Assembly: GCA_043797125.1 (NCBI GenBank)
Contig: JAZDPX010000006.1
Location: 70,921-134,920, forward strand
DNA: 64,000 bases
Reading direction: 5' to 3'
DNA from: Candidatus Omnitrophota bacterium
GTDB lineage: Bacteria > Omnitrophota > Gorgyraeia > JABMRG01 > JAFGKX01
A model generated the notes under the pieces. That model was not told the DNA's origin, did no database searches, and worked only from the letters and a program-made list of their open reading frames with translations. Every line of letters starts with the position of its first letter. The stretch's first letter is position 1. A program made the position numbers and the translations under genes. Below are positions 3,998-63,039 of this stretch, in pieces.

Positions 3998-4033
3998 TGC
4001 CAGCTGAATAGAATGTGAAAATTTGTGCCAGCC

Positions 4034-5443: not shown

Positions 5444-5471
5444 TTTAACCTTTTGTTCTTATCTCAAAATG

Positions 5472-33957: not shown

Positions 33958-34626
33958 TTACTCTTTTGCTATTTTTTGGGCTAAGTTATAGAGGGCGGTG
34001 TTTGCTAAAGCTAAAACTTTCTTTTTAACACGGCGGGAAAAATACTCGCGCTCTGTCTTTGTAAATTTTTCTCCTTTAAGCCTTTTCAGAAACAGCTCTT
34101 TTTGTTTCTTTGAAAACAGCTGCGATAAAGCATATTCAAGGTCAAACTCATCCTTCATTTGCGTATATTCTGTCAAACTGGCTTTTTTCTCCTTAAAGTA
34201 GCTTTCAAAAACATTAACTACTCTTACCGAAGACAGTTTCAATGTCGTCCCTTTTAAGTCATCTTTGCTCTTAAAGCTTTTAAGAAATGCCTCAAATGCC
34301 TTTTTGTTAAAAAAATCCATATTATACAACTGATCGACAAAAGACAATTTTAACCCCAGATAATCATACAGCGCAAGCGACATAACAACTAAGCCTTCAA
34401 AACTGCTTTTTTCAGGCTTTGCCTTTAAATATTTTTTGGCCGCTGTGTAATCGAAGAGCCCTTTTTCCATGCTGTTTACAAGCAACAACGGAAAACCTTC
34501 ATGCAGGCGGGAGTCTTTGCTCTTTACAACTTCCGCCAATGTCTTATTCGCATTGGTGGTTTCCCATTTTCCCAGCAAAGGATATCCTAATTCTCTCAAG
34601 TTTTTTAATAGCTCTTGCTTTTTCAT
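33958..34626 (-). CDS. Hypothetical protein; probable partner of the upstream nucleotidyltransferase in a two-gene module
   Basis: 222 aa, Lys-rich, with a 4-bp overlap with the NTase gene. No recognisable catalytic motif. Confidence 0.35.
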   Translation of the reverse strand: MKKQELLKNLRELGYPLLGKWETTNANKTLAEVVKSKDSRLHEGFPLLLVNSMEKGLFDYTAAKKYLKAKPEKSSFEGLVVMSLALYDYLGLKLSFVDQLYNMDFFNKKAFEAFLKSFKSKDDLKGTTLKLSSVRVVNVFESYFKEKKASLTEYTQMKDEFDLEYALSQLFSKKQKELFLKRLKGEKFTKTEREYFSRRVKKKVLALANTALYNLAQKIAKE

Positions 34627-35207
34627 ATATTAAACCCCTCTTTTTCTAAAATATGCAAAAAAAGCCTGAAATTCCTTTTATTCCTTTCATCAGAAACATC
34701 ATAGGAAGAGGTTTCATAAAATCTTTCTTTTAATTTCTCGATATCTATCTCTTTGCGCTTGGCTTTAAATAAAACCAAGCAATCTTCCATATCCACAGAA
34801 GTAAATCTAAAAATTTTACTTATCAGTAAATCGTAATAATTCAAAATCCCTAAATATATATACGAAAACTCTTTAAATAAAGTATTGTTGCCCTCTTCCA
34901 ACGAAGATTCAAGTAGTTCTGTTGTAAATATTTTCTTTCCAACAAATAAATCGAACTCAAAACCCTTACCCCTTCTCCACGATGTGCCGGTTTTCGGTTC
35001 ATACCCTAATCCTTCTAAGGCTTTTATCAAATATTTATACTCTGCTTCATCAGGTATAAGAAAATCAACGTCTTTCGTAGATTCCTTTAGATCCAATAAA
35101 GTCAGCGCTGTCCCGCCGCACGCTACAAGACACACCTTTCTCTTTATATGGCTATTCCATATAGAGAGTATATCCAGTAGTTGTGCCTTGTCTATTCTAT
35201 ATTCCAT
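34623..35207 (-). CDS. Nucleotidyltransferase, AbiEii/DUF1814-like
   Basis: ...VCLVACGGTALTLLDLKESTKDVDFLIPDE resembles the GGTAL ... DxD NTase motif. TACAA/TTGTA palindromes lie directly upstream. Confidence 0.45.
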   Translation of the reverse strand: MEYRIDKAQLLDILSIWNSHIKRKVCLVACGGTALTLLDLKESTKDVDFLIPDEAEYKYLIKALEGLGYEPKTGTSWRRGKGFEFDLFVGKKIFTTELLESSLEEGNNTLFKEFSYIYLGILNYYDLLISKIFRFTSVDMEDCLVLFKAKRKEIDIEKLKERFYETSSYDVSDERNKRNFRLFLHILEKEGFNI

Positions 35208-35319: not shown

Positions 35320-37437
35320 TTACGCTGCCTGGTCTAAGGCCTGGAGGGATTTTTTCTCTTTTATCTGCTCGAGGACATTAAGGAAAGATGCCTTTGTATC
35401 AATTTCATACTGCTTTTTGAATTTGATTTTCTGGAGCGTATCAACTAATTTTTGCGGCAGTTTATCCGCTTGTTCCTTCAAATCTATCCATTCAAGGGTT
35501 TTTAAATAATATTTATATAACTTGGAATCCTCGGACGTAATATCTCCATGGAGAACTTTCGTAATTTCAGAATCTTCAAAATCATCCGCTGTTAAATCTT
35601 TATAAATATATCCTGTGTTTCCGTCAAGCGTAATAGCCTCTCCCGCATTAAGTCTTGCGATTTCTTTTTTGTCATTATCTTGTATACTAAGGATGCCTTT
35701 TTCTGGTATCTCTCCGTATAACACAACATAAGGTATTCGTTTATTACTCTTTCTAATACCCTCTGCTACGTGGTCAAAGAGCCCCCCCCTCAAAGATATA
35801 ATTCCCGGAATATTATATTTCAAAATGCGTTCCTGGTATGGACCGATCATTGCTTCTGCTATGTGTGCGGTTACGTCTCTGCCGCTGCTTTCGGCTTCAT
35901 TAATCAAAAGCATTAAACAAATATGATCAGGTAATAAATCCATTCCCTCATTCTTTTTCGCGCCAATTCCTTCAAAAGGGTTTGGAATAACCGGGATGCA
36001 GCCTTTTAATAGTAATTCGTTTCTATCATCTCCTATGCTAACCTCAGCGGTCGCTATGCCCGGAAAAAGCGACGCGCCCCAAGCGATTGCCTTACCCTGA
36101 CTTTCTTTTTTAACAACAGGCTGCTCAAAGTAACTCTTAAGCCACTCCAAATCAGCTAATGAGATTTTTTCAAAAGCCTCTGATTCGTTCAGTATGCCTT
36201 CTTCTGCTAAATCAACTAAAGTGCGCGCTTGCGCCAATGGCGTTGTTGTATCCAAAGCATCTCGTGTCTGAACAATCCATAATTTGCCGGCAGATACAAC
36301 TATTTCAACATGCTGAATGCTCTTTTGATGTGCTTCTAATATTTTTATATAATTCAGGAGTTGTTTATAAATTTCAGGATGGCTATTTTCTAAATCCTTA
36401 TATTGCTTTTCTATTTCTCGTCTTACTCCTCTGGCCCCGTCTCCTAACTCAGCATATGGGGTAACGATAGAACTTCCGTCTACTGCAAATTCATAGTTTC
36501 CAACAATCCCCGGCTCTCCTGTAAAAGGGCTTCTGGTGCATAAGACGCCGCTTAACGACTTACCATCGTTTATATTGCCGAAAACCTGCCATTGGACATT
36601 AATTCCTCCTGTCAACTCATCGGTGTCCGTGTATATAAATGTATACTTGCCCCTGTTTTTTGTATATGAATTAGCGACCGCTGTTATTGCCTCTTTTAAT
36701 TGCTGCTTTGGATCCGAGAAATCGTGTTTAGTCATCTTTTTATATTCTTCTTCCACTTTTAATAATACCTCTTGTAATTTTTCAAAATTGATACGTTTTT
36801 TAAGCCCTTTACAAGCAGCGCAATTTAAATCACTATAATAGATTTTGTTGTTAGTTAATATTTTAAAAATTGAATCCGATTCTCTGTGGTTATCAACACA
36901 ACTTATGTAATCATAAATATATCTGATATATTCCAAATATGCCTGGTAACGGTCTCCTAATATCTGCGCATATGCATCAATATTGCTTCTATGCAGCCCT
37001 ACTTTATTTATTGTACGATATTCACCTGGTTTTGATTTTACAGCGCCCGCCCTGACTGCCAAAAGCATAAAATTATCCGAAGAACCATATTTTAATTTTT
37101 TACCTTCTTGCCGGGATGCTTTTTCCTCAATCCTTACCAGCCCACTTTCTATGTGTGGCCATAATGCTTGGTTAATTTCGTGATTTTCAATAATATCTTC
37201 TACCTCTTCATACGGTATCGTAAAACCCGCAGGCACAGGAAGCCCTAGATTAGTCATCTCCGCCAAATTAGCGCCTTTATTCCCTAAAATGTCCTTCATG
37301 TCTATTGAGCCGTCTGTATGGTCGCCGCCAAAATCATAGACGCGCTTGCCGCATTCTTCTGCTATCGGGCGCAAGGCATAACCCGGCTGAGACATCGCCA
37401 ACACAATCACTATTAATATCGTTATTATTTTTCTCAT
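35320..37437 (-). CDS. Signal-peptide-bearing PPDK/PEP-synthase-like dikinase (ATP-grasp plus phosphohistidine swivel domain) that lacks the PEP/pyruvate TIM-barrel domain; LRP motif family
   Basis: The N-terminus is MRKIITILIVIVLAMSQPGYALRPIAE. GNKGANLAEMTNLGLPVPAGFTI, AVRAGA...KPG and INVQWQVFGN match PPDK N-terminal motifs. RGGLFDHVAEG...AITLDGNTGYIY matches the PPDK phosphohistidine segment, with the His retained. The protein ends about 80 aa later. Confidence 0.6.
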   Translation of the reverse strand: MRKIITILIVIVLAMSQPGYALRPIAEECGKRVYDFGGDHTDGSIDMKDILGNKGANLAEMTNLGLPVPAGFTIPYEEVEDIIENHEINQALWPHIESGLVRIEEKASRQEGKKLKYGSSDNFMLLAVRAGAVKSKPGEYRTINKVGLHRSNIDAYAQILGDRYQAYLEYIRYIYDYISCVDNHRESDSIFKILTNNKIYYSDLNCAACKGLKKRINFEKLQEVLLKVEEEYKKMTKHDFSDPKQQLKEAITAVANSYTKNRGKYTFIYTDTDELTGGINVQWQVFGNINDGKSLSGVLCTRSPFTGEPGIVGNYEFAVDGSSIVTPYAELGDGARGVRREIEKQYKDLENSHPEIYKQLLNYIKILEAHQKSIQHVEIVVSAGKLWIVQTRDALDTTTPLAQARTLVDLAEEGILNESEAFEKISLADLEWLKSYFEQPVVKKESQGKAIAWGASLFPGIATAEVSIGDDRNELLLKGCIPVIPNPFEGIGAKKNEGMDLLPDHICLMLLINEAESSGRDVTAHIAEAMIGPYQERILKYNIPGIISLRGGLFDHVAEGIRKSNKRIPYVVLYGEIPEKGILSIQDNDKKEIARLNAGEAITLDGNTGYIYKDLTADDFEDSEITKVLHGDITSEDSKLYKYYLKTLEWIDLKEQADKLPQKLVDTLQKIKFKKQYEIDTKASFLNVLEQIKEKKSLQALDQAA

Positions 37438-37480: not shown

Positions 37481-38980
37481 CTATGCAGCAGCTCCAAATG
37501 CTAACATTATATTATATGAATTGTTCAATTCTTCAAATTTGAATCTGCCACACCCATCCTCAGTTCTAAGCGATGAAGCAATATCGTTCCATTTCAGTTT
37601 TTTCAGATTATCAATTGCGGCGCACACTTCATTTTTATTATTATCGAATTGTGCTTCCGCCCGCACCATGACTCTTATCCAATCTTCATATGCGCCTTTA
37701 TCCAACAATTCAATATAGCCTTTCAATTTGTTGGCAATTGTTTCATTCGCTTTGTATATATGCTGAATGTCGCCTGTTTTTGCATACTCTAAAAAAGCAG
37801 GTAAAAACTCCCATGTCAGTTTTTCTCTTTCTTTAATAACAGGGTTCTTTCTGTCAAGATACTTAGCAAAATTTAAACATAATATCCCAAAGCAAACGTC
37901 TCTATCCAGCTCGGCCACAGCACTGTACCTGCCTTTAATTTTTCTGTATACTATTGTATCGGCTATTGCATCAGCTAAGGCATGTGCAAAATACTCCAAC
38001 TCTCTATATTGCTCTTTCATTGAATATTCCAGGGCCTTAACATATATCTTTTTTGGTAAGGGTTTTTTAAATTGCGCAATATGACCATTTTCGTGTGCTA
38101 ATGGCTCTTCTAACAACAGCCTTGCCGCCTTTTTAACCTTTTGTGCCATCTCTTCAGGCTTCGCCGTAAGCATTTCTTGCTCTGTCATGCCTAATAATTT
38201 TTCCAGGCCTAACCTCGCCAAAAACTCGCTATAGGTGTTTCTTGACTTGTCATTTTTGTATATATAAATTTGACGCCACATAAAAAACTCGGATGCTTTT
38301 TCACGACCGACAACAATTTTTCTATCCGGCTGCATAAATGCTTGCACACTTATATTGTGGTTACTAACCGCTTCTTCTCCGATAGTGTATGCGGTATACC
38401 CGTTAATGTGTCTTTTACTTATTATCTTTCCCAATATGTACAAAGTTTTGCCGCCGTTGCCTACACTTCTGCTATACAGCCACCCTTGCGGTATAAGATA
38501 TTTATTGATTTTTTTTATATTAGTTGCTGATACTTGCATCTTTTTGCCTTTTGAGGTGACTACGGTTAGGCATTGATTAGGACTGGGGGATTTAAACATC
38601 TGCATGAGTTTGTTTACACGCAACAAATCTAATTGCGTTTCAAGATCAGATTTTTCCGCAAAAAAATATAATGGTTTAAACCGGTAATATCTAGCCAGGG
38701 GAGTGCCATTTAAATCCCTCCAGTATGGGTCGTCTAAAAATTTTATATCCTCCTGTTCCGCTAACTCATTTAACTGGTCTGCGAACAATTTGAGAGAATC
38801 GGGTAGAGTGCCATAATGACGTTTAGGATATAGGTTATTTAAAGAAGATTCAACAGAAAAAGATTCAAAGCTATCTGAATTATCAGATGCTACCGGCCGC
38901 AGACAGAAAGCTTCATTAGGCATTATTATAGTAATACATAGAATAATAAAAATTATAGTAATCGGATAGTATCGTTTCAT
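37481..38980 (-). CDS. Exported HExxH protein (putative zinc metallopeptidase); LRP motif family
   Basis: The N-terminus ...IIMPNEAFCLRPVASD carries the motif. The HExxH site is LAHENGHIAQ, with a downstream Glu (ALEYS). Confidence 0.5.
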   Translation of the reverse strand: MKRYYPITIIFIILCITIIMPNEAFCLRPVASDNSDSFESFSVESSLNNLYPKRHYGTLPDSLKLFADQLNELAEQEDIKFLDDPYWRDLNGTPLARYYRFKPLYFFAEKSDLETQLDLLRVNKLMQMFKSPSPNQCLTVVTSKGKKMQVSATNIKKINKYLIPQGWLYSRSVGNGGKTLYILGKIISKRHINGYTAYTIGEEAVSNHNISVQAFMQPDRKIVVGREKASEFFMWRQIYIYKNDKSRNTYSEFLARLGLEKLLGMTEQEMLTAKPEEMAQKVKKAARLLLEEPLAHENGHIAQFKKPLPKKIYVKALEYSMKEQYRELEYFAHALADAIADTIVYRKIKGRYSAVAELDRDVCFGILCLNFAKYLDRKNPVIKEREKLTWEFLPAFLEYAKTGDIQHIYKANETIANKLKGYIELLDKGAYEDWIRVMVRAEAQFDNNKNEVCAAIDNLKKLKWNDIASSLRTEDGCGRFKFEELNNSYNIMLAFGAAA

Positions 38981-49081: not shown

Positions 49082-49531
49082 TTATATGTTTTTACAGTAT
49101 TTGGAAAATTCTTTCTCGAGCTTACCTTTAACATAAACTACGAAAGACCTGGTTTCTTTAAGCAGCTCATTGAATTCTGCTTCACTGACAACATCTGTGT
49201 GGTCATAAAACGCATTGCCTCTTTTTTGTCTTGCGTCATCGAATAACATAATTATGCCTTTTATATAAGAATCTTCCATATTCCTCAATGCTTCCCATGT
49301 CATGTAATGATAGCTCTCTCTCGGGGCTTTATATCCCCGGCAAGCCAAAAGGCATTCTGCGGCAGCTAATGCGGCCTGATATGTTGAAATAAATCTTAAA
49401 TCCAAGGAAATGTTTGTCTGCGCCGCGTCTTTTAAGCATCTTTTTATCACATCAAAACGATCCCCTACTTCTTCCGGGTTTGTTTTATGTTTTTTTAGTT
49501 TTCCGAACCTGTATAAATCCTCTAAACTCAT
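49082..49531 (-). CDS. HEPN domain protein, partner of the MNT
   Basis: 149 aa, alpha-helical, with a candidate Rx6H motif (RGNAFYDH). It overlaps the 3' end of the MNT gene by 47 bp. Confidence 0.5.
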   Translation of the reverse strand: MSLEDLYRFGKLKKHKTNPEEVGDRFDVIKRCLKDAAQTNISLDLRFISTYQAALAAAECLLACRGYKAPRESYHYMTWEALRNMEDSYIKGIIMLFDDARQKRGNAFYDHTDVVSEAEFNELLKETRSFVVYVKGKLEKEFSKYCKNI

Positions 49532-50099
49532 CCTCGGTTCCTTTCAGAAATATTTTAGGCTCTTTTATTATGCTGCTTATAAAATGATTTTTGTCCTTCA
49601 GTTTTTTTAAAAATTCGCCTTCGGTATAAATAATGCTGTTTATTTCTCTGCCTACTGCGGATTGGTAGTTATACAAATCGGATTTTATATCTTTTAAACC
49701 TGCTTCCGCTATTATCACAATATCTATATCGCTTAAGCCTCTCTCCTGGCCTTTCGCAAACGATCCATATATAAAAGCAAATTGAATCTGCTTGTGTTTG
49801 GCCGCAATGCTTCTGAGCGCGCCTTCTATGCTGACAGTTTTTCTTATCACGCCCTTAATCTCCATATATAGCGGATAATCCAAGTTTAGTTTATAAAGCT
49901 TTATCCTCCCAAGCATTCTATGCGTAAATAGGCCTCCGGATTCAAGGGCCGCCATTTCCCTTCTAATGTTGCCTACCGAATAACCCGACAGCTTTTCAAT
50001 CTGCCTTAGATAATACTCTTTCTCGGGATCGTTAAAAAACAACTCCAGCATGGCGACTCTTGTTTTAGACTTGGTAATGTGGAATATCTCTTTTCCCAT
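49485..50099 (-). CDS. wHTH plus minimal nucleotidyltransferase (MNT)
   Basis: An N-terminal winged-helix is followed by ...FAFIYGSFAKGQERGLSDIDIVII, which is a GSx(n)...DxD Pol-beta NTase motif. A perfect palindrome GACTACAATTGTAGTC lies 14 bp upstream of the start. Confidence 0.65.
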   Translation of the reverse strand: MGKEIFHITKSKTRVAMLELFFNDPEKEYYLRQIEKLSGYSVGNIRREMAALESGGLFTHRMLGRIKLYKLNLDYPLYMEIKGVIRKTVSIEGALRSIAAKHKQIQFAFIYGSFAKGQERGLSDIDIVIIAEAGLKDIKSDLYNYQSAVGREINSIIYTEGEFLKKLKDKNHFISSIIKEPKIFLKGTEDEFRGFIQVRKTKKT

Positions 50100-50194: not shown

Positions 50195-50232
50195 AACAAC
50201 GATTCGGTAAACGGTACCGGTTTTACGCTGCC
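50195..50232. repeat. Family J shared 3' element (…CGATTCGGTAAACGGTACCGGTTTTACGC[T/C]GCC) at the end of the 998-aa gene
   Basis: The 30-bp core is identical to 53421-53450. It contains the CGGTACCG palindrome and supplies the …AA* stop. Confidence 0.7.
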
Positions 50233-53219
50233 TGCGCTATTACATTTTCATTACGGCTGTTTTTGTTGAGCTTCTCCGTCTGGTTATAATATATAAGCGG
50301 ATCCTTAAGATATTTCGTATAATATTCCGGGCCAAACTTTACAGGTTCTGCCGGTTCTAAAATATCATTAATAAGCTGCTCTATAAATTGCGGATTGGGA
50401 ATCTTGTCGCCGTTTGCGGCAATAAATTTTATAATTTTTCCCATTTCACTATTTATAATGCTTCCGTGTTTTTTCATTACAAAATGCACAACCATATGAT
50501 AGTACCAATCAGCGTACATGTAGCGGATGGGCAAATAAACCGTAAACCATATATAATGAATGAGCGCGCAATACCTCGGGTATTTTCTAAGTTCAGCCGG
50601 TGCGGGAAATTTTTTCACTTCGTCAAGATTATCCCATTGCAGCTTTTTTAGGGCTTCGAGCTCAGGGACATCGAGGCTGCCGAACATTTCTTTATATTTT
50701 TCTGGTTCATATTTTTTTACATCCGATATCATATATAAAAGCTCATCTATATTCATGTCGGCAAAGTAATCAGCCTTACTTCTGTATCCGACAAGGTCCT
50801 CCAAACGGTGGGCGATTAAAAACTTTTTTATTAACTCGAGCGGCATTTGTTCGCCTTTGGAATTCCGGGGATATTTTGCCAGCCATTCTGGGGTATAAAG
50901 CATATTTTCAATAAATCTTGCCATACCCTCCTTCATTCTTGTGTCGCACGAAGCAAACGTCGGCCCCTCTCTGTAATCAGAATAGAGATGGTCAATCGCG
51001 TGTCCCGACTCATGAAACATCACCCATGCGGTTAACCGACCACCTGAGGCAAGCGTAATTATAATTCGCGTATCTTTCTCGCCAAGCGCGCAGCATACTC
51101 CGGGATGTTTAAACCTCCCTGTCTCCGTTTTTCTTGAGTCTGAGGGGTTTGTATCAAAGTATATCATTTCCGCGTCTAAACCGAGGTCTTTTAAAGTTTC
51201 CAGAAACATACCCATAAGTTTGTTCGCGGGAAGATATTCATCCACCTCTTTATAAACATCTCGCAGGGCCCAACTTGTGTTCCAGGGCGCCGGTTCAAGC
51301 TCAGCACTTTCTTTTTTAAGAAGATCGGCAATCTCTTGGTCAGCTCGCTTTATGTCATCTTTCAAATCAACTTTCATCTGCTTCATAAAACGCTTATACT
51401 CATCGAAATCAGCTCTTTGAACTCGAGCTTGTAATTGATGATAATTGGTAAGAGACGGGATATTGTACTTTTCAGCCACCAACTTGGTTGCCTCATTTTG
51501 CAAATCTTTCACTTGTTCTTTTCGCGGTTCAAATGCCTCTGCGCGCCACATCCAAAGCATATATGCCCATTCTCTCAACTCTTCTTTAGGTTCAGTTTCG
51601 AATATCTCAAGTATGTTATTATCGCCTACCGGCCTTGCTTTAAATGCCGTGGATATCACATTATATATCGCGTCTTTCTTTTTCCAATCTTTTTCCTCAT
51701 TTAATATACTAAGAACTTTTTTATCATCCGCGATTTCCTTTTTCCCCTTGTAGATATTCGATATTGATGTATACAATTTTTGCTTTTTTTTTGCATCGTT
51801 ATTGCTTGCAAGCGTCTCGCTGGCCTCATCATTATCCACGACTGTCCCGCTAGCCCGGGATAAGAGCAGATATGCTTCTCTTTTTTTGATTTTGTCTTTT
51901 GCCTTATCCAATACATTGAATGCCATAGAATTGTTTTTAATATATTTGCCTCTGAAAAATGTCGATATATACATATATGCTTTGCACTTTTTCACTTTAT
52001 CAGGGTCATCTGATAACAAAGAAAGCGTGTCTTTCTTATATATGGCCTTCCCATAGAGCTTGTATAAAAAATCATATATCTTTCCTAGTTCTTTCCTCCT
52101 GCCCTCTTTTTGCAACTCCTCCATCGCCTGGTTTGCCGCGACAGGACTATTAATTCTTTTAGTGCCCGTAAGCCAGGATATAATTTTATACATTTCCCAT
52201 TTTTTTATCTCGCTGGTTTCGGCTGTTAACAGCTTTTTAACATCGTTGTCGTCATAAATAAGCGGGCCGCCATAAATCATAGGGAAACTCATATAATCTG
52301 CATCCATTGTGTTTTTAAACGTCGATACTGGAGGGCTTTCCTCAACCTGGCTTAGCAAAAGCGAGTCGAAAAGATCCTCATACTTTCTTTTAAGATAATA
52401 TTCGCTAACCAGCTTTGAATACGCTAAGACCTTTTTAGATAAGGTTTCGTCTGTAACTATTTTTAATATTTCCTTTCCGATTTCAGCGTATTTCTTAGCG
52501 GTAGCCTGCGCCAACTCTTTATCACAAGTAAACATGGGCTGTTCTTCGTATAACCTGCTTTCACGCCAGGTTTCACCCCAGTTGGCACCGAAACGCTTTC
52601 TTTGAAGGAGCATCTCCTTTTCTTCCTCGCTCAATGTGGCTAAATATTTTTCATACTCCTGTTTACTTCCTTCAAATTCCCCGATAGCGCTCATTAACCG
52701 AAACTGAACAATACCATGCTCTATACCTTTATTGTATAATGGCAGGTAAGCCTCATCAAAAAATTTGCGCGCGGATTTTTCCAAATCTCTTTTCTTGAGT
52801 ATGCCGTTTGGAAATATATCTTTAATGCACTGGGCATATTGCAGGATATCTTGCTGTTTTTCTTTTTCCTTTATTGCTCTGCTCTTAAAAAACTTCGACA
52901 CATTGCTGTTTTTTAGTGATATTTCTTGCTTTAATGGCTCGCCCTTTTTTCTCGGCAGTTTCGACAGCGCGACAATCAACTCCTGCGCCAAGGCAATATT
53001 CTCCGCTTTTTGCTGGTCGGGCGCCTCTTGGCGCATATCATCATATTTCTTTTTCAGCATATCATATGTTATAGAATCTTTGATAAACGATATGGGCCGC
53101 AAAGCGGAAGAATCGCTGTTTGTTCTGGTGCATATTTGCGACTTTTGGAAAGCTAGCTGGTTGGATAAAAAGACAGTTGCTAATAATAATGATGATATTC
53201 TCTTTATAAGTATTTTCAT
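50223..53219 (-). CDS. Large exported HExxH protein (putative gluzincin-type metallopeptidase); LRP motif family
   Basis: 998 aa with a signal peptide followed by ...SDSSALRPISF. The HExxH site is MFHESGHAIDHLY with a downstream Glu (MKEGMARF). The C-terminal ...QAA* and the stop are contributed by the family-J repeat. Confidence 0.55.
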   Translation of the reverse strand: MKILIKRISSLLLATVFLSNQLAFQKSQICTRTNSDSSALRPISFIKDSITYDMLKKKYDDMRQEAPDQQKAENIALAQELIVALSKLPRKKGEPLKQEISLKNSNVSKFFKSRAIKEKEKQQDILQYAQCIKDIFPNGILKKRDLEKSARKFFDEAYLPLYNKGIEHGIVQFRLMSAIGEFEGSKQEYEKYLATLSEEEKEMLLQRKRFGANWGETWRESRLYEEQPMFTCDKELAQATAKKYAEIGKEILKIVTDETLSKKVLAYSKLVSEYYLKRKYEDLFDSLLLSQVEESPPVSTFKNTMDADYMSFPMIYGGPLIYDDNDVKKLLTAETSEIKKWEMYKIISWLTGTKRINSPVAANQAMEELQKEGRRKELGKIYDFLYKLYGKAIYKKDTLSLLSDDPDKVKKCKAYMYISTFFRGKYIKNNSMAFNVLDKAKDKIKKREAYLLLSRASGTVVDNDEASETLASNNDAKKKQKLYTSISNIYKGKKEIADDKKVLSILNEEKDWKKKDAIYNVISTAFKARPVGDNNILEIFETEPKEELREWAYMLWMWRAEAFEPRKEQVKDLQNEATKLVAEKYNIPSLTNYHQLQARVQRADFDEYKRFMKQMKVDLKDDIKRADQEIADLLKKESAELEPAPWNTSWALRDVYKEVDEYLPANKLMGMFLETLKDLGLDAEMIYFDTNPSDSRKTETGRFKHPGVCCALGEKDTRIIITLASGGRLTAWVMFHESGHAIDHLYSDYREGPTFASCDTRMKEGMARFIENMLYTPEWLAKYPRNSKGEQMPLELIKKFLIAHRLEDLVGYRSKADYFADMNIDELLYMISDVKKYEPEKYKEMFGSLDVPELEALKKLQWDNLDEVKKFPAPAELRKYPRYCALIHYIWFTVYLPIRYMYADWYYHMVVHFVMKKHGSIINSEMGKIIKFIAANGDKIPNPQFIEQLINDILEPAEPVKFGPEYYTKYLKDPLIYYNQTEKLNKNSRNENVIAQAA

Positions 53220-55777: not shown

Positions 55778-56263
55778 TTACTTTTTCCTTTTTACCGCGG
55801 CCTTCCTTATAACTCTGAATTTGTTTAAGTCTTGAGCTATTGCTTCATTCAGCGCAACATAATAAGTCGATAACACCTCAATATAAATCTCCGAGGTTGA
55901 CTCTATAGCCTGCTTCGAAAATTTTTTCAGGCTCTCGATATTCAACTCGTTATTAGTCTTTATCTTGTTAAGCCATTTTTCAGGATAATCAATAGCGGCT
56001 TCATTTAAATCCTGCTCCTTTATCATGTTAAAAACCCCTAAAATCGAAGAATACGCCTCAAGCTGCGTCATGGTTATAATACAGGAATCCCACAGGCTGC
56101 TCAATAAAAGTATGTCTTTTGATACTTTCATCAGCGGCTTTATCTCTTTTGCCGTCTCGTACACCTTTGTGTACATCTTAGCCAAGTCGCTATCTACGGC
56201 ATAGATATTAGAGCTGGCAAATATGGCCGAAATAATAATTACAGCTGCCAACATTTTCTTCAT
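55778..56263 (-). CDS. Exported hypothetical protein, the last gene of the T2SS-like cluster
   Basis: 161 aa with a signal peptide (MKKMLAAVIIISAIFASSNIYA). A conserved hairpin-plus-RBS element lies upstream. Confidence 0.4.
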   Translation of the reverse strand: MKKMLAAVIIISAIFASSNIYAVDSDLAKMYTKVYETAKEIKPLMKVSKDILLLSSLWDSCIITMTQLEAYSSILGVFNMIKEQDLNEAAIDYPEKWLNKIKTNNELNIESLKKFSKQAIESTSEIYIEVLSTYYVALNEAIAQDLNKFRVIRKAAVKRKK

Positions 56264-56299: not shown

Positions 56300-56860
56300 T
56301 TATTTCGGTATAACGGTTTTTGACACGGTCATGGAGCAAACAGCAAGGCTTGAATCTTTAGATTTCGGGGTTATCCGGTATTTTTCAACCGTAAGCAAGC
56401 TGTCCGAGCTCTCTATATTATACATAAAATCTACCATCTGCTCCATCTGCGCTTCGCAGTTTAAATTTAACACGTACCTCATAGCTCCTTCCTGAAGCTC
56501 CAGTTTGCCCGGCTTCATATCAACAAGATAAACGGAAGATTTATTCGCTATCTTCTCTACCTCTTTTAAGAAAGACGCTATTGCCTCTTCCTCTGACTCT
56601 GCCTTGCTGAAAAAAGTGGAATACTTTTGCATCTTTGTCCCTATTTTGTCCTTTTGCGATAATATATGCAAATTCCTTTTGATGCCTGACTGCCTGTCTT
56701 GAATCTGTTCGTTAAGCGATTTTATTTTTGATAAAATCGGATTTATTATAAGCCTGTCTAAAAGCGCTAATGAAATAATAATGGCTGCCCCGTAAAAAAT
56801 AATCTTTTCTCTTTTTGATAAACGCGACAGATAGTTATAAATATTCTGCACTTTAAACAT
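56300..56860 (-). CDS. gspM: GspM/PilO-like assembly-platform protein
   Basis: 186 aa with a single N-terminal TM helix and a periplasmic alpha/beta domain; it follows the gspL-like gene. Confidence 0.5.
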   Translation of the reverse strand: MFKVQNIYNYLSRLSKREKIIFYGAAIIISLALLDRLIINPILSKIKSLNEQIQDRQSGIKRNLHILSQKDKIGTKMQKYSTFFSKAESEEEAIASFLKEVEKIANKSSVYLVDMKPGKLELQEGAMRYVLNLNCEAQMEQMVDFMYNIESSDSLLTVEKYRITPKSKDSSLAVCSMTVSKTVIPK

Positions 56861-58341
56861 TAGCTGCCTTTTTCCTTATTTATTAAACTGATTATTTCAA
56901 AATCTGCCACATCTACATCGCCTTTTTTTCTTTTTGTGGTATACCTATTCTTTACATCCTTAAAATATCGTGATTTTTCCATCTCCTCAACAAAGGAAAA
57001 GACCGCTGCCATGGAATCTGCCGTGCCCTTTATGGAAAATATATCTGTTATGTCAAATTTTATATCTGTCAGCTGCACATTTTCAGGAAGGACACTATAA
57101 AGGTCAGCTAAAACCTCTAAGGAATAACCGCGTTTGTAAAGATAAGCTTTTGTTGCCTGGACCTTTAAAAAGGAGTTTTCCAGATTTTGCACATCCGGAA
57201 GCTGCGATTGGTATTTTTCATCCAGCTTGCTTAAGTAAGCGCTTTGAAAATAAATTTTGCTTGTAAGCATAATGCAAACAAAAACAAAGATGACCAACGC
57301 GAGAAAGCCGGTTTTAATAATCTCTTTGCTTTTCTCCTCAAAGGCCCTTTTTAATTTTACTTCCTCCGGAACAAGCGCAAGCCTTAATTCGTTTTGCACA
57401 AAAAGCACGGATATAACATCCAAAAAAGATACGGCGCTGCCCGGGCTTGTGGATTTTAACACTTCCTGCGATAATGGCAGATTTTTAAGATAATCAAACG
57501 TCCTCACGGGCTTCTGCATGCTGCTTGTAAAAATTGACTCCAAATTCTTAACCCGTTCAAAAGCGCCTGTTAGGATAATACCGTCGGGCTTTTGCTCAAT
57601 ATCTTCAGCCTCATATGCCTCCAATGAACTTTTTACCTCATCAACAAATCTATTCTGCGGCGCTAAAATTTGGCTTGCTAAGCTCTCTATTTCTGTAGGA
57701 ATGCTTCTTACATATATTACCTTGCCTTTAAATACAACGGTAAAATCCGTAAAACCTTCATCCACATGGACTATGCAGGTAGGCATGGCCTTGTTCTCAA
57801 GTTTCATCATTTTAGAAACAAACTTGCTTACACTCTCTGGTGAAAAAATAATCTGCTCCAGTTTAAAGCCTGCCTTGTTCAATATCGCGGAGTGCCTTTT
57901 TATAACATCGCGCGACACAATAACCAGCAACACTTTGGTATAGCTGCGTTTGAAAGTGCCGAGCTCTACATAATCAACAACTATCTCCTCGCGTGAATAG
58001 GGAGTGTGCCTTCCGGCCTGAAGGTTTATTATTTCTTTTATCTCTGACGGGTCAAGAGACGGTATTTCTATGTTTTTGGTTATGCTTAAATGCGACGGTA
58101 TCATACTTATGATATCCGTAGGCCTTAAGCCCTGCTCATTTAAAGAGGCCTTGATAGCCTTAGAGATATCCTCGTCGCGCAGGCCCCTTATGTTTTTGCT
58201 TGAGAAACCTATTCTTTTAACCGCATGCCCGACAACCTGCGCGTGGGCAAGTTTTAAATTGTTGCCGCTAAAATCCACGGAAACAATCACCCTGCTGTTT
58301 AAGGCGCCTAACAATTTAATTTGCGCTAAGATTCCTGCCAA
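56860..58341 (-). CDS. gspL: GspL-like (PilM-fold cytoplasmic domain, TM helix, periplasmic domain) assembly-platform protein
   Basis: 493 aa with an actin-like N-domain, a TM helix (GFLALVIFVFVCIMLTS) and a periplasmic C-terminal region. It is a paralog of the architecture at 1690-3204. Confidence 0.55.
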   Translation of the reverse strand: MAGILAQIKLLGALNSRVIVSVDFSGNNLKLAHAQVVGHAVKRIGFSSKNIRGLRDEDISKAIKASLNEQGLRPTDIISMIPSHLSITKNIEIPSLDPSEIKEIINLQAGRHTPYSREEIVVDYVELGTFKRSYTKVLLVIVSRDVIKRHSAILNKAGFKLEQIIFSPESVSKFVSKMMKLENKAMPTCIVHVDEGFTDFTVVFKGKVIYVRSIPTEIESLASQILAPQNRFVDEVKSSLEAYEAEDIEQKPDGIILTGAFERVKNLESIFTSSMQKPVRTFDYLKNLPLSQEVLKSTSPGSAVSFLDVISVLFVQNELRLALVPEEVKLKRAFEEKSKEIIKTGFLALVIFVFVCIMLTSKIYFQSAYLSKLDEKYQSQLPDVQNLENSFLKVQATKAYLYKRGYSLEVLADLYSVLPENVQLTDIKFDITDIFSIKGTADSMAAVFSFVEEMEKSRYFKDVKNRYTTKRKKGDVDVADFEIISLINKEKGS

Positions 58342-59348
58342 TATAAAACCTTTCCTTTTTTATCAACTACGCATAAAATGCGCATTTTGCTCTTTTTATT
58401 ATTCAGCTTGGCGTTGCATTGAATCGTAAAATTTTCAGAATACACAACTAAATCCTTTTCAGAAACCGCGGCGGTAAGCTGCGCTGCCTCAAAATCCCCG
58501 AGATTAAAGACCTGGCTTAAAGTCAGCACTATCCCTTCGCTAGATTCAAAGACAAAGTCATCCTCGGTCCCCTCCAGCTTATCCGCGCCGCAGCGAAAAG
58601 CCAGAATCTTTTGCACGACATCATTATTTAAACCCAATGAATATAATACCGCTGCGGGAGCGGTATTTATATTCATTTTACCTTCCCCGTAAACAGTGAT
58701 ATAATCGCGCACCCTGTCAAATATTTCGTTGGTCATACCTTTGACCAGCAAGACCTCTTCAAGCGCCTCAAAATCGCCGTCCTTCGCCTCATAGGGATGC
58801 GAAAGATACCTGTAGTAAGAATCCTCGGCGCTGCCTATGGGTATAGATAGGTTTCCGTCGCCGTCCTGCCAGTCAATAATAGAAGCGGCTAATTCTTGGG
58901 CTTGAGTTTCCTCAAGGCCGAGCACACTTTTAAAAAGCTTCTGTATCATTGGCCTGGACGCCTTGTTTAAATTTATCTTTCTCTCCTCGTCAATAAGCCC
59001 GTATCTTGTTTTTATGGAACGCGTCTTTTTATCAACATAATTGTACGAGATAGAAAAAGTCCCGTCGCCAAGCCTTACGTTTTTAAACTGTGCCGCATTA
59101 TCGCTCCAGTCGCTTCTCAGACAATCGTATGAGGCCGCCTCTGCCCCTTCAGAATTACGGTCTGCCCTTATTTTCGAGTGCGCGTATTTTACACCGGCCT
59201 CGGCTATAGCCCGCAACTTGGCTTTGTCATTAAGCCTATAGACAAGGGTGGTTCTTTGCCTCACCTGGTAGCCTAAAATCAAGGCAAACGCGGATAAAAG
59301 AGAAAGCGCCCAGAGCGTAACCAACAATATGCTTGCTGTCTTTTTCAT
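58326..59348 (-). CDS. gspK: Minor pseudopilin GspK
   Basis: The N-terminus reads ...SILLVTLWALSLLSAFALIL; the size and position after gspJ fit. Confidence 0.6.
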   Translation of the reverse strand: MKKTASILLVTLWALSLLSAFALILGYQVRQRTTLVYRLNDKAKLRAIAEAGVKYAHSKIRADRNSEGAEAASYDCLRSDWSDNAAQFKNVRLGDGTFSISYNYVDKKTRSIKTRYGLIDEERKINLNKASRPMIQKLFKSVLGLEETQAQELAASIIDWQDGDGNLSIPIGSAEDSYYRYLSHPYEAKDGDFEALEEVLLVKGMTNEIFDRVRDYITVYGEGKMNINTAPAAVLYSLGLNNDVVQKILAFRCGADKLEGTEDDFVFESSEGIVLTLSQVFNLGDFEAAQLTAAVSEKDLVVYSENFTIQCNAKLNNKKSKMRILCVVDKKGKVLYWQES

Positions 59349-59352
59349 AAGA

Positions 59353-59949
59353 TCATCCGCCCGCCGGAATGTTCACCGTTCTTGTGAGCTTTTCCTCTGT
59401 AGCGCCGTTTTTAAGCTCTAATATTATCCTGACAGCCAGAGGCAGCTTTTCGTCGCGCCAGTCTTGCGCCCAGTTATACTTTTTCGCTGTCTCGTCGTAA
59501 AAATAATATTCAAACTTCAGATACTTAACTTTGGCAATGGCCTGTTTTGAACTTGAGCCCTTTCTCTGATAAGCTAAAGAGTAATCAGCCTCTTGCCTGT
59601 TAAGGATGTTTTTATAAGCATCATAGGAATAGGTTATCCTGCCCACACTCCTTTTGCCTAAGGCCGGGCTGTTAACAAGCGCGGCAAATTCAAGGCCCTG
59701 GCTTTTGCCCTTAAAATCAATGCCTGTAAATTTGAAACTTGTTTTTATGTCCGAGGAAAATCTCTCAAAAAATATCACTAAGTCCTCTTCCTCAACGGGC
59801 TTATTCAGCTTGTGCCATATCTTAAGCCCGCTGCTTAAGGTGCTGTATATTGCCGTAGAAATAACAGATAATATTATTGTGACAATAAGCATCTCCATCA
59901 AGGTCATGCCAGAACTTGTGACTTTATTATGCCTTTTCTCTGTTCTCAT
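59353..59949 (-). CDS. gspJ: Minor pseudopilin GspJ-like
   Basis: Prepilin-type N-terminus SSGMTLMEMLIVTIIL (G|MTLxE). Confidence 0.6.
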   Translation of the reverse strand: MRTEKRHNKVTSSGMTLMEMLIVTIILSVISTAIYSTLSSGLKIWHKLNKPVEEEDLVIFFERFSSDIKTSFKFTGIDFKGKSQGLEFAALVNSPALGKRSVGRITYSYDAYKNILNRQEADYSLAYQRKGSSSKQAIAKVKYLKFEYYFYDETAKKYNWAQDWRDEKLPLAVRIILELKNGATEEKLTRTVNIPAGG

Positions 59950-60349
59950 ACGCTATGTAAGTAGTCCTTGTAACGCTTATGCCTCTTTGCGCTTCTTGCC
60001 AAAAAACAGATAAATTAATTTTATACAACCCTTGGTTTGCGTCTATGGCAGAACTTGACAGCTCCCACTGAAAATATTTTCCCTTTTTTTCAAACCCCCC
60101 TGTTTCGCCGACTCCCTCCAAAGTCCCGGCCTGATTTAAATAATCTTCGGCCTGCCAGGCCTTTTCATCCATCCATGGTAGGACGCTTAAATAATGTATA
60201 GAATAATTATACAGGTCAAAAAATAAAAAATACGCCTCGTGAATCAAAACAGCGCCCATCGATAGAATTGCTGTTGTTACAATCACCTCCAAGAGGGTAA
60301 AACCAGCTATGAATTGCTTACACCTTTTACTGCCAATTCGCGATATCAT
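59927..60349 (-). CDS. gspI: Minor pseudopilin GspI-like
   Basis: Prepilin N-terminus AGFTLLEVIVTTAIL. Confidence 0.6.
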   Translation of the reverse strand: MISRIGSKRCKQFIAGFTLLEVIVTTAILSMGAVLIHEAYFLFFDLYNYSIHYLSVLPWMDEKAWQAEDYLNQAGTLEGVGETGGFEKKGKYFQWELSSSAIDANQGLYKINLSVFWQEAQRGISVTRTTYIAYENREKA

Positions 60350-60752
60350 CGGAGCTTTCTGTTCCGTCTTTGCCTAACGAATACAAATCATAATCCTGCC
60401 TATTTTCTCCGGGAGATTTGTACTCATATCTTTTCCCCCACGGGTCTAACGGCTCTTTCTCTAAATACGGGCCATTCCATTGCTGCGCGGACGGCGGCCT
60501 CTTAAGCAAAGCTTCCAACCCTTCGTCTGTGCTGGGAAAATTACCATTATCCAGTTCGTAAATTTTTAACGCTGTGGCAATATTTGTATTTATGTCCGCT
60601 CTGGCTACGGCGACGCGCGCCTGCTCGCCCCGGCCTGTAAGCCTCGGCATTACCATCGCCACCAGCGCTCCAATAATAATAACTACAAGCATTAGTTCAA
60701 TTAAGGTAAATGCCCTAAGCTCTAAACCATAAACTCTAAATTGTTTTTTCAT
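60327..60752 (-). CDS. gspG: Major pseudopilin GspG
   Basis: ...RAFTLIELMLVVIIIGALV... with the C-terminal DPWGKRYEYKSPG...YDLYSLGKDG signature of GspG. Confidence 0.85.
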   Translation of the reverse strand: MKKQFRVYGLELRAFTLIELMLVVIIIGALVAMVMPRLTGRGEQARVAVARADINTNIATALKIYELDNGNFPSTDEGLEALLKRPPSAQQWNGPYLEKEPLDPWGKRYEYKSPGENRQDYDLYSLGKDGTESSDDIANWQ

Positions 60753-61687
60753 TTTTCCTCCCCGTGCCTGTACGAACGCAAAATACCGGTTATATATTCT
60801 TCGCTCATATCGCTGTCATCCTTTATGCTTGCCTCAAGGTATTTTCTCCAGCCTTCAGCAAGCTCTTCCTTATTGCGTATATACGATGGATAGGCAAAAC
60901 TTAGCGCTTCTTCAGCGGTTTTTCCGTCGCGCAGCTGCCTGCAGAATTCCGAAAACATTTCCGCGCCATATCTTTCTATTAAAAAATCTACCAAAGAAAA
61001 AGACCCTATATAAAATACGTCAACAAGCGCTTCTGTATCCAAAAACAGCACTCCGTCCTCGCCCTCTCTTGTTACTGCCGGGCGTATAAATAATCTATTT
61101 TCGCGCTTAAAGTGGGCGCTGTTAATACGCATTAAATCTTTTATTGAAAGCATCTTCCCTTTTTTATGCAACTGGGTGGATATATGCCTTCTTTTATCCC
61201 TTCTTAATTCTTCTGCCCATTGCGCTACGCCCTCATACAGCCAAAGCGGCACCTTACCATTAGCCTGGCCAAGATAGCCCAAGAAAATCATGTGAGCTAT
61301 TTCGTGCGGAAGGATTGATTCAGTAAATTCGGCGTTTAAATTATATCCCGCTATTTCTTTTATATCATAAAAAGCGACGCCGTCAGACCATTGCGGCTGG
61401 TTTGTCCCTTTTATATAAGAGTCGTGATCAGGATAAATGGTAATCTTCACCCTGCTGTTCCACGACCAGAATTTCGAATATTTCGCGTATCCAAACTCAT
61501 CGCCGATATTTCTGTAATAATACTCTGCCTTATCCAATACTTCTTTTGCAAAATTTTTATCGCCGGTGAAACTTACCTTAAAATGCTCGCTTGCGAGCTC
61601 TTCCTGAAAAGCAAGCGCCGTCGCGCTTACGGCAAACAAAACAATCCCCACTAAAAAAAATAAAAATCCCTTAATTTTTTTATACAT
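60749..61687 (-). CDS. Exported HExxH protein (peptidase MA-like) embedded between gspF and gspG
   Basis: A signal peptide is followed by ...ILPHEIAHMIFLGYLG...LWLYEGVAQWAEE, i.e. HExxH plus a downstream Glu. Confidence 0.55.
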   Translation of the reverse strand: MYKKIKGFLFFLVGIVLFAVSATALAFQEELASEHFKVSFTGDKNFAKEVLDKAEYYYRNIGDEFGYAKYSKFWSWNSRVKITIYPDHDSYIKGTNQPQWSDGVAFYDIKEIAGYNLNAEFTESILPHEIAHMIFLGYLGQANGKVPLWLYEGVAQWAEELRRDKRRHISTQLHKKGKMLSIKDLMRINSAHFKRENRLFIRPAVTREGEDGVLFLDTEALVDVFYIGSFSLVDFLIERYGAEMFSEFCRQLRDGKTAEEALSFAYPSYIRNKEELAEGWRKYLEASIKDDSDMSEEYITGILRSYRHGEEK

Positions 61688-61726
61688 TTCTTCTCTTCTG
61701 TTTCTGCGTAAGTATATCGACTCGGA

Positions 61727-61752
61727 CGTAGCGCAGGCTTAAGCCTGCGCTA
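61727..61752. repeat. Family A palindrome (copy 3), between gspF and the HExxH gene
   Basis: Identical 26-mer with flanking CG. Confidence 0.8.
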
Positions 61753-61772
61753 CGTTTATAGATGATCGACCA

Positions 61773-63017
61773 TTAATGCGCCATCACATTTATTTCAAAC
61801 ACAGGCAGCAATATCGCCATCACGATAAATCCGACAATCAGGCCCATCACTAAAATCATCAAAGGTTCAAGCAGCGAAACCATCAGCCTTATTGCCTCAT
61901 CCGTATCGCGTTCATAGTAATCCGCTACTTCTGCAAAGGCCTCGTGTAGTTTGCCGGATTCTTCGCCGACGATTACGAGACTGCTCATAAAAGAAGGTAT
62001 GACCTTCGAGCCTTTCAGGCTTTTGCCGAAAGAGCCGCCTGCTTCCAGTTCTTTGCGGCTTGAGCTTAATTTTGTTTTTATAATCTCGTTTCCCAAAACA
62101 GGAATAGATATATCAATGGCCTTAAGTACCGGGGTACCGCTTTTTATAAGAAGCTCCATGGTCCTGCCAAAACAGGCAAGTTCCGCCTTAAGCGCAAATT
62201 TTCCATATATGGGCATGTGCAATTTAAGCATGCTTAATAAAAGCCTCCCCGGCCTTGTTTTGTTCTGGGCCTTAATAATTAAAATAAAAGCTGCTAAAAA
62301 CAAGGCTATTGCCGGCCAGCCCTGTTGAAGATAGGAGCTTGTGGAAATTAAAATACGCGTCGGTAAAGGAAGCTTTTGGCCCATATTGGCAAAAATTCCC
62401 ATAAGCCTCGGCATTACATATGTGAGCATAAAAATCACCGTAGAAAGCCCTACAAGAGCCATAAGAACCGGGTATGCCATTGCCATGCGGAAACGCGAAA
62501 CAATATCTTCTTGCTGCGAACGGTATTCAAAAACACGCATAAGCGCGTCGTGCAAAGAACCGCTGTCTTCTCCCGCGCGTATAACAGCTCCATAAATAGA
62601 AGGAAAAACCTTTGGATAACGCTCAAGGGTAGATGAAAAGGTGGCGCCGTCCTTTATGGCATTGTGCATATCCAAAAGCAAGGCCCTTAGTTTAAGGTTG
62701 TCGGTTTGTTCTGAAATTATATTAAGCCCGTCTAATATAGGGACCCCTGATTTTAATAAGCTTGCCAATTGCCTGCTAAAAATGGTAATCTCGCGATTTC
62801 TTATCCTGCCTGATGGCAGTTTAAAAGAAACAGGCTTACGATAAGCGTTATGATAAACAGGCGCTATAATTTCCTCAGCGGTAATTTCTTCTATAGACAC
62901 GGGCAGATAACCCATCCGGCTGATTTTATCAATGGCCTCTGCTTCTGACTGGGCATGTATCCGGTCTTCTCTTACATCCTGCGGCCCTTTTTTAGCTTTG
63001 TATTTATATATCGGCAT
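61773..63017 (-). CDS. gspF: Type II secretion / type IV pilus platform protein GspF/PilC
   Basis: Two T2SSF repeats and a polytopic membrane pattern; 414 aa. Confidence 0.85.
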   Translation of the reverse strand: MPIYKYKAKKGPQDVREDRIHAQSEAEAIDKISRMGYLPVSIEEITAEEIIAPVYHNAYRKPVSFKLPSGRIRNREITIFSRQLASLLKSGVPILDGLNIISEQTDNLKLRALLLDMHNAIKDGATFSSTLERYPKVFPSIYGAVIRAGEDSGSLHDALMRVFEYRSQQEDIVSRFRMAMAYPVLMALVGLSTVIFMLTYVMPRLMGIFANMGQKLPLPTRILISTSSYLQQGWPAIALFLAAFILIIKAQNKTRPGRLLLSMLKLHMPIYGKFALKAELACFGRTMELLIKSGTPVLKAIDISIPVLGNEIIKTKLSSSRKELEAGGSFGKSLKGSKVIPSFMSSLVIVGEESGKLHEAFAEVADYYERDTDEAIRLMVSLLEPLMILVMGLIVGFIVMAILLPVFEINVMAH

Positions 63018-63039
63018 ATGTAGTCTCCGTCTATTTCAG

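Follow-up and report, generated by a model that had tools for sequence, protein, structure and literature searches.

A predicted zinc peptidase encoded directly upstream of the major pseudopilin gene in the type II secretion clusters of Omnitrophota, and two unrelated zincin-type proteins of the same genomic window

The locus and its genes

The present analysis concerns a peptidase-like gene, here termed P3, that lies inside a type II secretion system (T2SS) gene cluster of a Candidatus Omnitrophota bacterium, together with two further genes of the same stretch of DNA, P1 and P2, whose products carry a motif of the same HExxH type. The stretch, referred to below as the window, comprises 64,000 nucleotides of a 159.8-kb contig of a metagenome-assembled genome (locus tags of the V2A72_ series); its G+C content is about 42% and the minus strand carries nearly all of its genes. 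An earlier reading made from the letters alone (the sequence-only reading) had pointed to three minus-strand open reading frames (ORFs) with HExxH and a downstream Glu, and all three are present as read from the sequence: P1 at 37481-38980, P2 at 50223-53219 and P3 at 60749-61687. Across all window ORFs of at least 100 amino acids (aa), HExxH occurs four times, the fourth occurrence being HEITH in the ORF at 4034-5443; the chance expectation is about 0.5, a rough hand estimate from amino-acid frequencies that was not computed with a tool. The neighbouring genes are largely of the housekeeping kind and include those for aminoacyl-tRNA synthetases, queuosine, fumarase, LolCDE-like, Mla, ClpC and AsmA-like proteins, smpB and transfer-messenger RNA (tmRNA).

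The genes around P3 encode the T2SS parts E, F, G, the minor pseudopilins H/I/J/K, L and M, as identified by Pfam, and follow the order gspE-F-[P3]-G-H/I-J-K-L-M and a gene for a 161-aa protein, after which come smpB and the tmRNA gene; this gene order recurs in related loci. The position of P3 between gspF and gspG, to which the sequence-only reading had drawn attention, is borne out by these Pfam-identified neighbours. The stop codon of P3 overlaps the start codon of gspG (ATGA), and a GGAGG ribosome-binding site lies within the last codons of P3. The features of the cluster are as follows.

63186-63980, minus strand: gspE ATPase, C-terminal part with a fused PilZ domain (Pfam T2SSE, PilZ)
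61773-63017, minus strand: gspF, inner-membrane platform protein (Pfam T2SSF, 7.5e-53)
61726-61755, minus strand: 13-bp perfect GC-rich hairpin in the 85-nt spacer between gspF and P3, T-run absent (-30.3 kcal/mol, z -4.9 against shuffles)
60749-61687, minus strand: P3, predicted exported M1-like gluzincin, 312 aa (Pfam PF13485, Peptidase_MA_2)
61292-61306, minus strand: HEIAH zinc-binding motif of P3, aa 128-132 (H128, E129 and H132 invariant)
61232-61234, minus strand: predicted third ligand of P3, Glu152 in LWLYEGVAQW (Glu at +20 from the second His, in EGVAQW)
60327-60752, minus strand: gspG, major pseudopilin (Pfam T2SSG, 1.4e-32)
59927-60349, minus strand: gspH/I-like pseudopilin (Pfam)
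59353-59949, minus strand: gspJ (Pfam T2SSJ)
58326-59348, minus strand: gspK (Pfam T2SSK_1st)
56860-58341, minus strand: gspL-like PilM-PilN fusion (Pfam PilM_2 and PilN)
56300-56860, minus strand: gspM/PilO-like (weak Pfam T2SSM/PilO)
55778-56263, minus strand: conserved exported 161-aa protein, present in related loci

The gspE frame runs on upstream toward the end of the window, and position 63980 is merely the first in-frame start codon listed for it.

P3 as a predicted zinc peptidase

P3 matches the Pfam family Peptidase_MA_2 with 54.3 bits against a cut-off of 32.4. The same family is matched by all 42 of the aligned P3 relatives, and Peptidase_M1 is matched weakly by 41 of them, with an E-value of 0.1 for P3 itself and of 2.5e-5 for the best of the relatives. 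Detectable relatives number 397, the best 120 of which are 46-54% identical to P3, and those that carry an organism name are nearly all from Omnitrophota. In the 42-sequence alignment, H128, E129, H132 and E152 are invariant along with 33 other positions, and the pattern HExxH...WLxEG was found in all 80 of the loci compared, with the Glu at +19 in 78 of them. A strand motif, WSxG-[MVLI]-A-[DE], is conserved 25 residues ahead of HExxH in the family. The N-terminus is a Sec-type leader, MYKKIKGFLFFLVGIVLFAVSATALA followed by FQ, with an AxA end (ALA/FQ, the slash marking the predicted cleavage site), and leaders ending in AxA also occur in the relatives, for example VAVA/QDW. The export of P3 suggested by the sequence-only reading is thus supported by its leader.

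An AlphaFold2 model of P3 (predicted local distance difference test, pLDDT, 87.5; predicted template modelling score, pTM, 0.82) places HExxH on a helix at residues 119-139 and the Glu on a helix at residues 148-157, with a beta-sheet preceding them, so that in this protein the motif is helical and a third ligand is available in the model. A Foldseek search with the model against the PDB gave 42 matches with an E-value of 1e-3 or lower, all of them M9, M1 or M30 peptidase domains with template modelling scores of about 0.4-0.6 (about 0.5 for the M9 and M1 domains, E-values 5e-6 to 1e-3); the named matches are M9 collagenases, ERAP1, IRAP, APN, F3 and lugdulysin, and the best are an M9 collagenase and the catalytic domains of ERAP1 and IRAP (E-value about 5e-6). 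The check for a thermolysin-like active site by structure prediction, which the sequence-only reading had asked for, thus came out in favour of P3. In addition, the profile of the P3 family aligns with the active site of puromycin-sensitive aminopeptidase (M1, HExxH-x18-E), HEIAHLIFRDFVGFKGEVPLWLDEGVAQW.

P3 shares HExxH-x18-E and WLxEG with the Peptidase_MA_2 proteins of Pfam and the catalytic domain of M1 aminopeptidases (PSA, APN, ERAP1, IRAP, LTA4H), as well as the active-site helix, the Glu helix and the beta-sheet before the helix. It differs from the M1 aminopeptidases in its size of only about 285 aa, in lacking both the N-terminal beta domain and the C-terminal helical ARM domain, in carrying a Sec leader, in being encoded at a constant position within a gsp operon, and in having G-[MVLI]-A-[DE]-Y in place of GxMEN. 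Strict membership of MEROPS M1 was rejected on account of the single domain, the below-threshold match to Peptidase_M1 and the altered GxMEN motif. On the combined evidence of profiles, alignment and model, P3 is predicted to be a genuine gluzincin of clan MA(E) with an M1-like active site, HExxH-x18/19-E, the Glu lying in WLxEG. Some points weigh against this assignment: P3 of the window is the most divergent member of its family and shares about 50% identity with each of the others; its strand motif has F where D/E is usual and reads GVAFY; and its zinc binding, its proteolysis and its secretion are all predictions.

A peptidase encoded among type IV filament genes calls to mind the prepilin peptidase GspO/PilD (MEROPS A24), with which P3 has this location in common. 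The A24 enzymes are polytopic aspartyl proteases acting at the cytoplasmic face, whereas P3 is predicted to be soluble, to use zinc and to have its leader cleaved off. The sequence-only reading had held that P3 is not a prepilin peptidase, and rightly so, since the protein has one N-terminal hydrophobic stretch, a soluble zincin fold in the model, no polytopic aspartyl architecture and no match to Peptidase_A24. A role as another kind of leader peptidase for the pseudopilins was rejected as well. The GspG leaders across the loci are of the ordinary type G/FTLIELM (a minority with A at -1), which is cut by A24 enzymes on the cytoplasmic face, so that P3 would not be needed for leader removal. 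The scanned ORFs of the window include no A24 peptidase.

Linkage of P3 to gspG across the Omnitrophota

A scan of a one-genome-per-species collection yielded 276 stretches that encode a P3 relative, and the Gsp proteins of the window were mapped onto the best 80 of these loci. Adjacency was scored when gspG started no more than 700 bp downstream of the peptidase gene, or when gspF ended no more than 700 bp upstream of it, and loci with sufficient flanking sequence were taken as testable. By this measure gspG lies directly downstream of the peptidase gene in 66 of the 71 testable species loci (about 93%), and gspF directly upstream of it in 45 of 64. Most of the gaps that separate the peptidase gene from gspG fall in the range of -50 to +60 nt. 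Where gspF and the peptidase gene are separated, the inserted genes encode histidine kinases and response regulators, some of the latter being PilZ fusions (loci L001, L011, L016, L017, L023, L026, L046 and others), and the peptidase gene keeps its place beside gspG. Since P3 stays with gspG despite the insertions on the gspF side, the genes from P3 and gspG to gspM act as one unit, of which P3 is the first gene.

The conservation of P3 across these loci is comparable to that of the machine itself. Its median identity of 46% equals those of gspK (46%), gspL (46%) and the gspE tail (46%); it is lower than those of gspG (74%) and gspF (57%) and higher than those of gspH/I (37%) and gspJ (41%). 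A peptidase-pseudopilin arrangement of this kind was not found described in the papers searched on Peptidase_MA_2, on DUF6866/Sfum_1244 or on Omnitrophota T2SS with a peptidase, and the coupling of the two genes throughout the phylum is a new form of T2SS gene organisation. The coupling is genetic, and probably translational too. The constancy of P3 directly upstream of gspG in about 93% of the testable species loci argues that P3 is probably a working partner or a dedicated cargo of the T2SS. The link between a zinc hydrolase and the secretion cluster, which the sequence-only reading had drawn for all three proteins, thus stands for P3, while for P1 and P2, which lie 9 and 22 kb off among housekeeping neighbours, no such tie was seen.

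Some of these observations would also be accounted for if P3 were a periplasmic peptidase of general housekeeping function that stands in the operon for historical reasons and has no functional link to secretion: the gene lies away from gspG in five of the 71 loci, two loci (L066 and L070) are free of gsp genes for 8 kb in both directions from it, and Peptidase_MA_2 is a broad family. An adjacency of 93% at a protein identity of about 46%, with overlaps or short gaps, would be hard to keep without selection, and this explanation is considered improbable.

The probable role of P3

P3 reads as a T2SS-linked exoprotease, either a cargo or an accessory of the machine. In the scheme proposed here, P3 would be translated together with the major pseudopilin GspG, would pass the inner membrane by the Sec pathway, would fold in the periplasm into an active zinc peptidase and would act with the T2SS, in the periplasm or outside the cell. 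As a conserved exoprotease it would be handed to the pseudopilus and freed to the cell surface or into the medium, the model for such a release being SslE/YghJ and StcE in Escherichia coli and TcpF/CofJ in type IVb pili.

Zinc metalloproteases are classic T2SS substrates, and some of them are encoded beside their machine. In E. coli K-12, yghJ lies directly upstream of pppA-yghG-gspC and heads the T2SS-beta operon, and YghJ/SslE is an M60-like metalloprotease secreted by this system. StcE and EngY are zinc-metalloprotease substrates of T2SS (PMC3521999). Like P3, SslE/YghJ (E. coli T2SS-beta), StcE (Etp) and EngY (Yersinia Yts1) are zinc metallopeptidases whose genes stand beside a T2SS; they differ in being large (more than 800 aa) lipoproteins or exoproteins of the M60/M66 mucinase type, encoded at the edge of the cluster in few genera, whereas P3 is small and M1-like, and its gene is conserved phylum-wide between gspF and gspG. 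TcpF of the Vibrio cholerae toxin-coregulated pilus (TCP) and CofJ of the colonisation factor antigen III (CFA/III) of enterotoxigenic E. coli (ETEC) are secreted proteins encoded in type IVb pilus operons. They are like P3 in being soluble exported proteins encoded amid filament genes and are released via that machine, but they are not enzymes and belong to another branch of the type IV filament superfamily.

Certain observations count against a role as cargo. A secretin, GspC and a prepilin peptidase are absent from the gsp cluster here and from the clusters of related loci, and the sole secretin found in the window is an N-terminal part (Secretin_N and STN, 1-602, minus strand) about 55 kb away from the gsp cluster. 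T2SS cargo is usually encoded at the margin of the cluster or in another place altogether, and its genes change more quickly than those of the machine; the location of P3 inside the cluster and its machine-level conservation would therefore suit an accessory component no less than a cargo. Such a component would be a periplasmic enzyme for trimming or degradation of pseudopilins, serving length control or recycling without a retraction ATPase, or for maturation of cargo before secretion. Its intra-cluster position, its coupling to the major pseudopilin and its machine-like conservation favour this role, as does the finding that P3 heads the pseudopilin unit even where regulators part it from gspF. 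The WSxG-[MVLI]-A-[DE] motif, which resembles the GxMEN exopeptidase motif of M1, would suit the trimming of peptide ends. Against an accessory role, the ordinary GspG leaders make P3 superfluous for leader removal, the AxA leader suggests a free soluble protein over one bound to the platform, and to our knowledge no accessory peptidase of this kind is known in any T2SS. The accessory role is put forward tentatively and is ranked only a little lower than that of a cargo.

P2 and P1

The sequence-only reading had treated the three proteins as a family. An all-against-all BLASTP search gave no match between any pair of P1, P2 and P3, and hhalign assigned a probability of 0.2% to the P1 family against P2 and of 2.2% to the P3 family against the P1 family, the latter alignment spanning only the HExxH turn. 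With BLASTP empty and both hhalign probabilities below 3%, a single family of the three proteins is ruled out, and by these comparisons the zincin-type genes of the window are three independent ones.

50223-53219, minus strand: P2, orphan protein of 998 aa with leader and LRP (aa 40-42); the C-terminal part holds an active-site region of M3/M32-like type (below-threshold profiles)
51000-51014, minus strand: HESGH of P2, aa 736-740, with Glu at +24 and FIEN (sequence)

P2 has only its self match among 5.8 billion clusters, and scans of the full-length protein against Pfam, NCBIfam and the PDB were empty or spurious. When the C-terminal 330 aa were scanned alone, Peptidase_M3 was matched with an E-value of 8.3e-5 (22.5 bits against a cut-off of 27) and Peptidase_M32 with 3.1e-4, also under threshold, and oligopeptidase A (4ka8) aligned to P2 through FHExGH, the zinc Glu (+24) and F[MI]EN with an E-value of 0.019. 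P2 is thus alike to the M3 oligopeptidases (OpdA, Dcp) and to the M32 carboxypeptidase Taq in HExGH...E(+24)...F[MI]EN, and its motif lies at a relative position similar to that in the M3 enzymes, about 0.7 of the length (736/998). It differs from the M3/M32 enzymes in being about 300 aa longer, in its leader and LRP, in having no detectable relatives and in its sub-threshold scores. Taken together, these features give moderate support to P2 being a very divergent, neurolysin-like (M3/M32-like) and lineage-specific metallopeptidase with a leader; the family assignments, all under the curated thresholds, weigh against it.

37481-38980, minus strand: P1, divergent DUF6866 protein, 499 aa, with an added N-terminal leader and LRP (Pfam DUF6866_N)
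38081-38095, minus strand: HENGH of P1, aa 296-300; Glu residues follow its second His at +18, +23, +27 and +29

P1 scores 32.6 bits against the Pfam family DUF6866_N (cut-off 27) and 57.8 bits against Sfum_1244_fam of NCBIfam (cut-off 150); DUF6866_C was not detected in P1 itself. An exhaustive HMMER search gave 30 representative relatives of 26-36% identity, and among 23 aligned family members DUF6866_N was found in 18 and DUF6866_C in 14. H296, E297, G299 and H300 are conserved in at least 90% of the family, E329 (+29) is kept in most members, and likewise the acidic D337 (+37) and D341 (+41) of [DE]xxAD[TS]. The AlphaFold2 model of P1 (pLDDT 83.6) carries the motif on a helix at residues 291-305. 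P1 shares HExGH and the LADT motif with the DUF6866 (PF21739/PF21740) and Sfum_1244 proteins and differs from them in an extra leader region of 60 aa and a C-terminal tail. Most relatives begin about 60 residues later and have no leader, from which P1 may be described as a DUF6866 core with an added leader.

The leader of P1 depends on a translation start at the first ATG (38980), and the NCBI gene model starts at Met20 and omits the hydrophobic stretch. A strong promoter-like site (10/12, 39041-39013) lies 25 nt upstream of the first ATG, and this site, together with the layout of leader and LRP that P1 has in common with four other proteins, favours the long form. P1 and P2 are probably exported by Sec via their leaders.

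The profile and structure checks that the sequence-only reading had called for thus gave different outcomes for the three proteins: P3 passes as a peptidase, P2 remains below the M3/M32 thresholds, and P1 falls in a family of unknown function, with a helix-borne HExGH and a conserved Glu at +29 and without a fold match in the PDB. The proposition that P1, and possibly P2, are not proteases, and use HExxH for another metal-dependent reaction or for a structural metal outside any secretome, draws on the DUF6866 membership of P1, on the lack of any match between its confident model and a solved peptidase or other fold of the PDB, on relatives that are mostly leaderless and look cytoplasmic, one of them in an archaeal housekeeping neighbourhood, on the NCBI model that drops the leader, and on the below-threshold peptidase matches of P2. 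Opposed to it are the helix-borne HExGH of the P1 family, which is conserved at 90% or more and accompanied by conserved acidic residues (Glu +29, Asp +37, Asp +41), the agreement of P2 with oligopeptidase A in HExGH, in the zinc Glu and in F[MI]EN, and the leader and LRP layout common to five proteins. This proposition is considered possible but less likely. P1 is probably a metal-dependent hydrolase, and a peptidase function is plausible for it.

The closest P1 relative with usable context (P0124, loci L085-L087; 32% identity, second-best match overall) lies on an archaeal contig, where its neighbours are genes for archaeal FtsZ, Spt5-NGN, IF5A, an M50 peptidase and ribosomal proteins L1 and L10 (L10P). 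Archaeal prey has been reported in the literature for some Omnitrophota, which makes the archaeal P0124 notable. A conserved pair of P1 and a PPDK-like gene, the latter being described below, was considered and found no support: the context of P0124, the one relative for which it is usable, has no PPDK-like gene, and two other relatives lie on contigs of less than 2 kb.

The LRP leader and the PPDK-like protein

As the sequence-only reading had stated, two of the three proteins carry the tripeptide LRP, P1 at aa 27-29 and P2 at aa 40-42, and P3 lacks it. A signal-peptide-like stretch followed by [A/G/C]-LRP-[V/A/I] occurs in five minus-strand proteins of the window (4034-5443, 5472-6332, 35320-37437, P1 and P2). 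Its use as a mark of zinc hydrolases did not hold, as the same layout stands at the N-terminus of a PPDK-like ATP-grasp protein and of two uncharacterised ones. LRP within the first 50 residues was observed five times against 0.49 expected (Poisson P 1.5e-4), and as three commoner tripeptides also reach a count of five, the statistics of LRP alone are modest. Residues 9-50 of P1 resemble the N-terminus of the 286-aa LRP protein (BLASTP E-value 0.003). The 84 gsp loci examined from other Omnitrophota contain 337 leader-like ORFs, none of which has an LRP leader, an absence that says little because these loci hold mostly machine genes. The layout may be a lineage-specific sorting signal or a mature N-terminus.

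35320-37437, minus strand: PPDK-type protein, 705 aa, with leader and LRP and an N-terminal ATP-grasp domain (Pfam PPDK_N)
4034-5443, minus strand: 469-aa LRP-leader protein bearing HEITH, with weak TPR-like matches only

The PPDK-type protein matches TIGR01828 with an E-value of 6.3e-67 over positions 2-407 of 865 of the model. Its gene starts 43 nt downstream of P1 and is probably co-transcribed with it. The metagenome scan gave two relatives of it, both weak with 28% identity, one of which (L088) is a canonical PPDK. A leader on an ATP-using fold is an odd combination.

Other features of the window

The hairpin in the spacer between gspF and P3, which precedes the pseudopilin unit, may have a processing or stabilising function. 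The gspE-gspF intergenic region (63018-63190, minus strand) consists of 8-nt ATCAGA(G/A)N repeats and, after them, the reverse complements of these, and as RNA would form one hairpin of about 55 bp with a free energy of -73 kcal/mol (z -10.4). Full-length GspE relatives (loci L003 and L092) have the layout MshEN-T2SSE-PilZ. The PilZ domain of GspE, together with MshEN in the relatives, suggests control of the system by cyclic di-GMP.

1-6332, minus strand: second type IV filament set, with a PilM-PilN fusion (1690-3204), PilO (1115-1708), a T2SSB-like gene (627-1118) and the secretin N-terminus (1-602); two LRP-leader genes and a 127-aa ORF adjoin it directly upstream
33958-35207, minus strand: DUF6036 nucleotidyltransferase and a 222-aa partner, downstream of the PPDK-like gene
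49082-50099, minus strand: HEPN (SAV_6107-like) and nucleotidyltransferase pair, just downstream of P2
54797-55233, minus strand: tmRNA, adjoining smpB and directly downstream of the gsp cluster

The pairs at 49082-50099 and 33958-35207 look like toxin-antitoxin-type modules next to LRP-leader genes. The tag of the tmRNA is predicted by ARAGORN to be unusually long, with 26 residues: ADTIRAKVMEVVPVNTGMVSMMPLAA.

Conclusions

The three proteins are fresh members of known or suspected zincin groups. In the reading preferred here, to which a probability of about 0.55 is given, P3 would be the dedicated exoprotease of the T2SS, P2 a divergent M3/M32-like metallopeptidase and P1 a DUF6866 protein with HExGH and probably a metal-dependent hydrolase. 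A further proposal, of a more speculative kind, regards the Omnitrophota Gsp system as a T2SS variant into which a periplasmic zinc peptidase is built as a core accessory part, made stoichiometrically with GspG and needed for pseudopilus turnover or cargo maturation, and the LRP leader as a mark of lineage-specific exported effectors derived from normally cytoplasmic enzyme folds; we know of no description of such a peptidase component for any type IV filament machine.

Omnitrophota are uncultured and mostly ultra-small bacteria for which dependence or predation on other cells is assumed. P3, bound to the pseudopilin genes phylum-wide, is a concrete candidate for how these bacteria act on their hosts, and could be either a conserved secreted tool of the Omnitrophota T2SS or the agent of an accessory step that is new to type II secretion.

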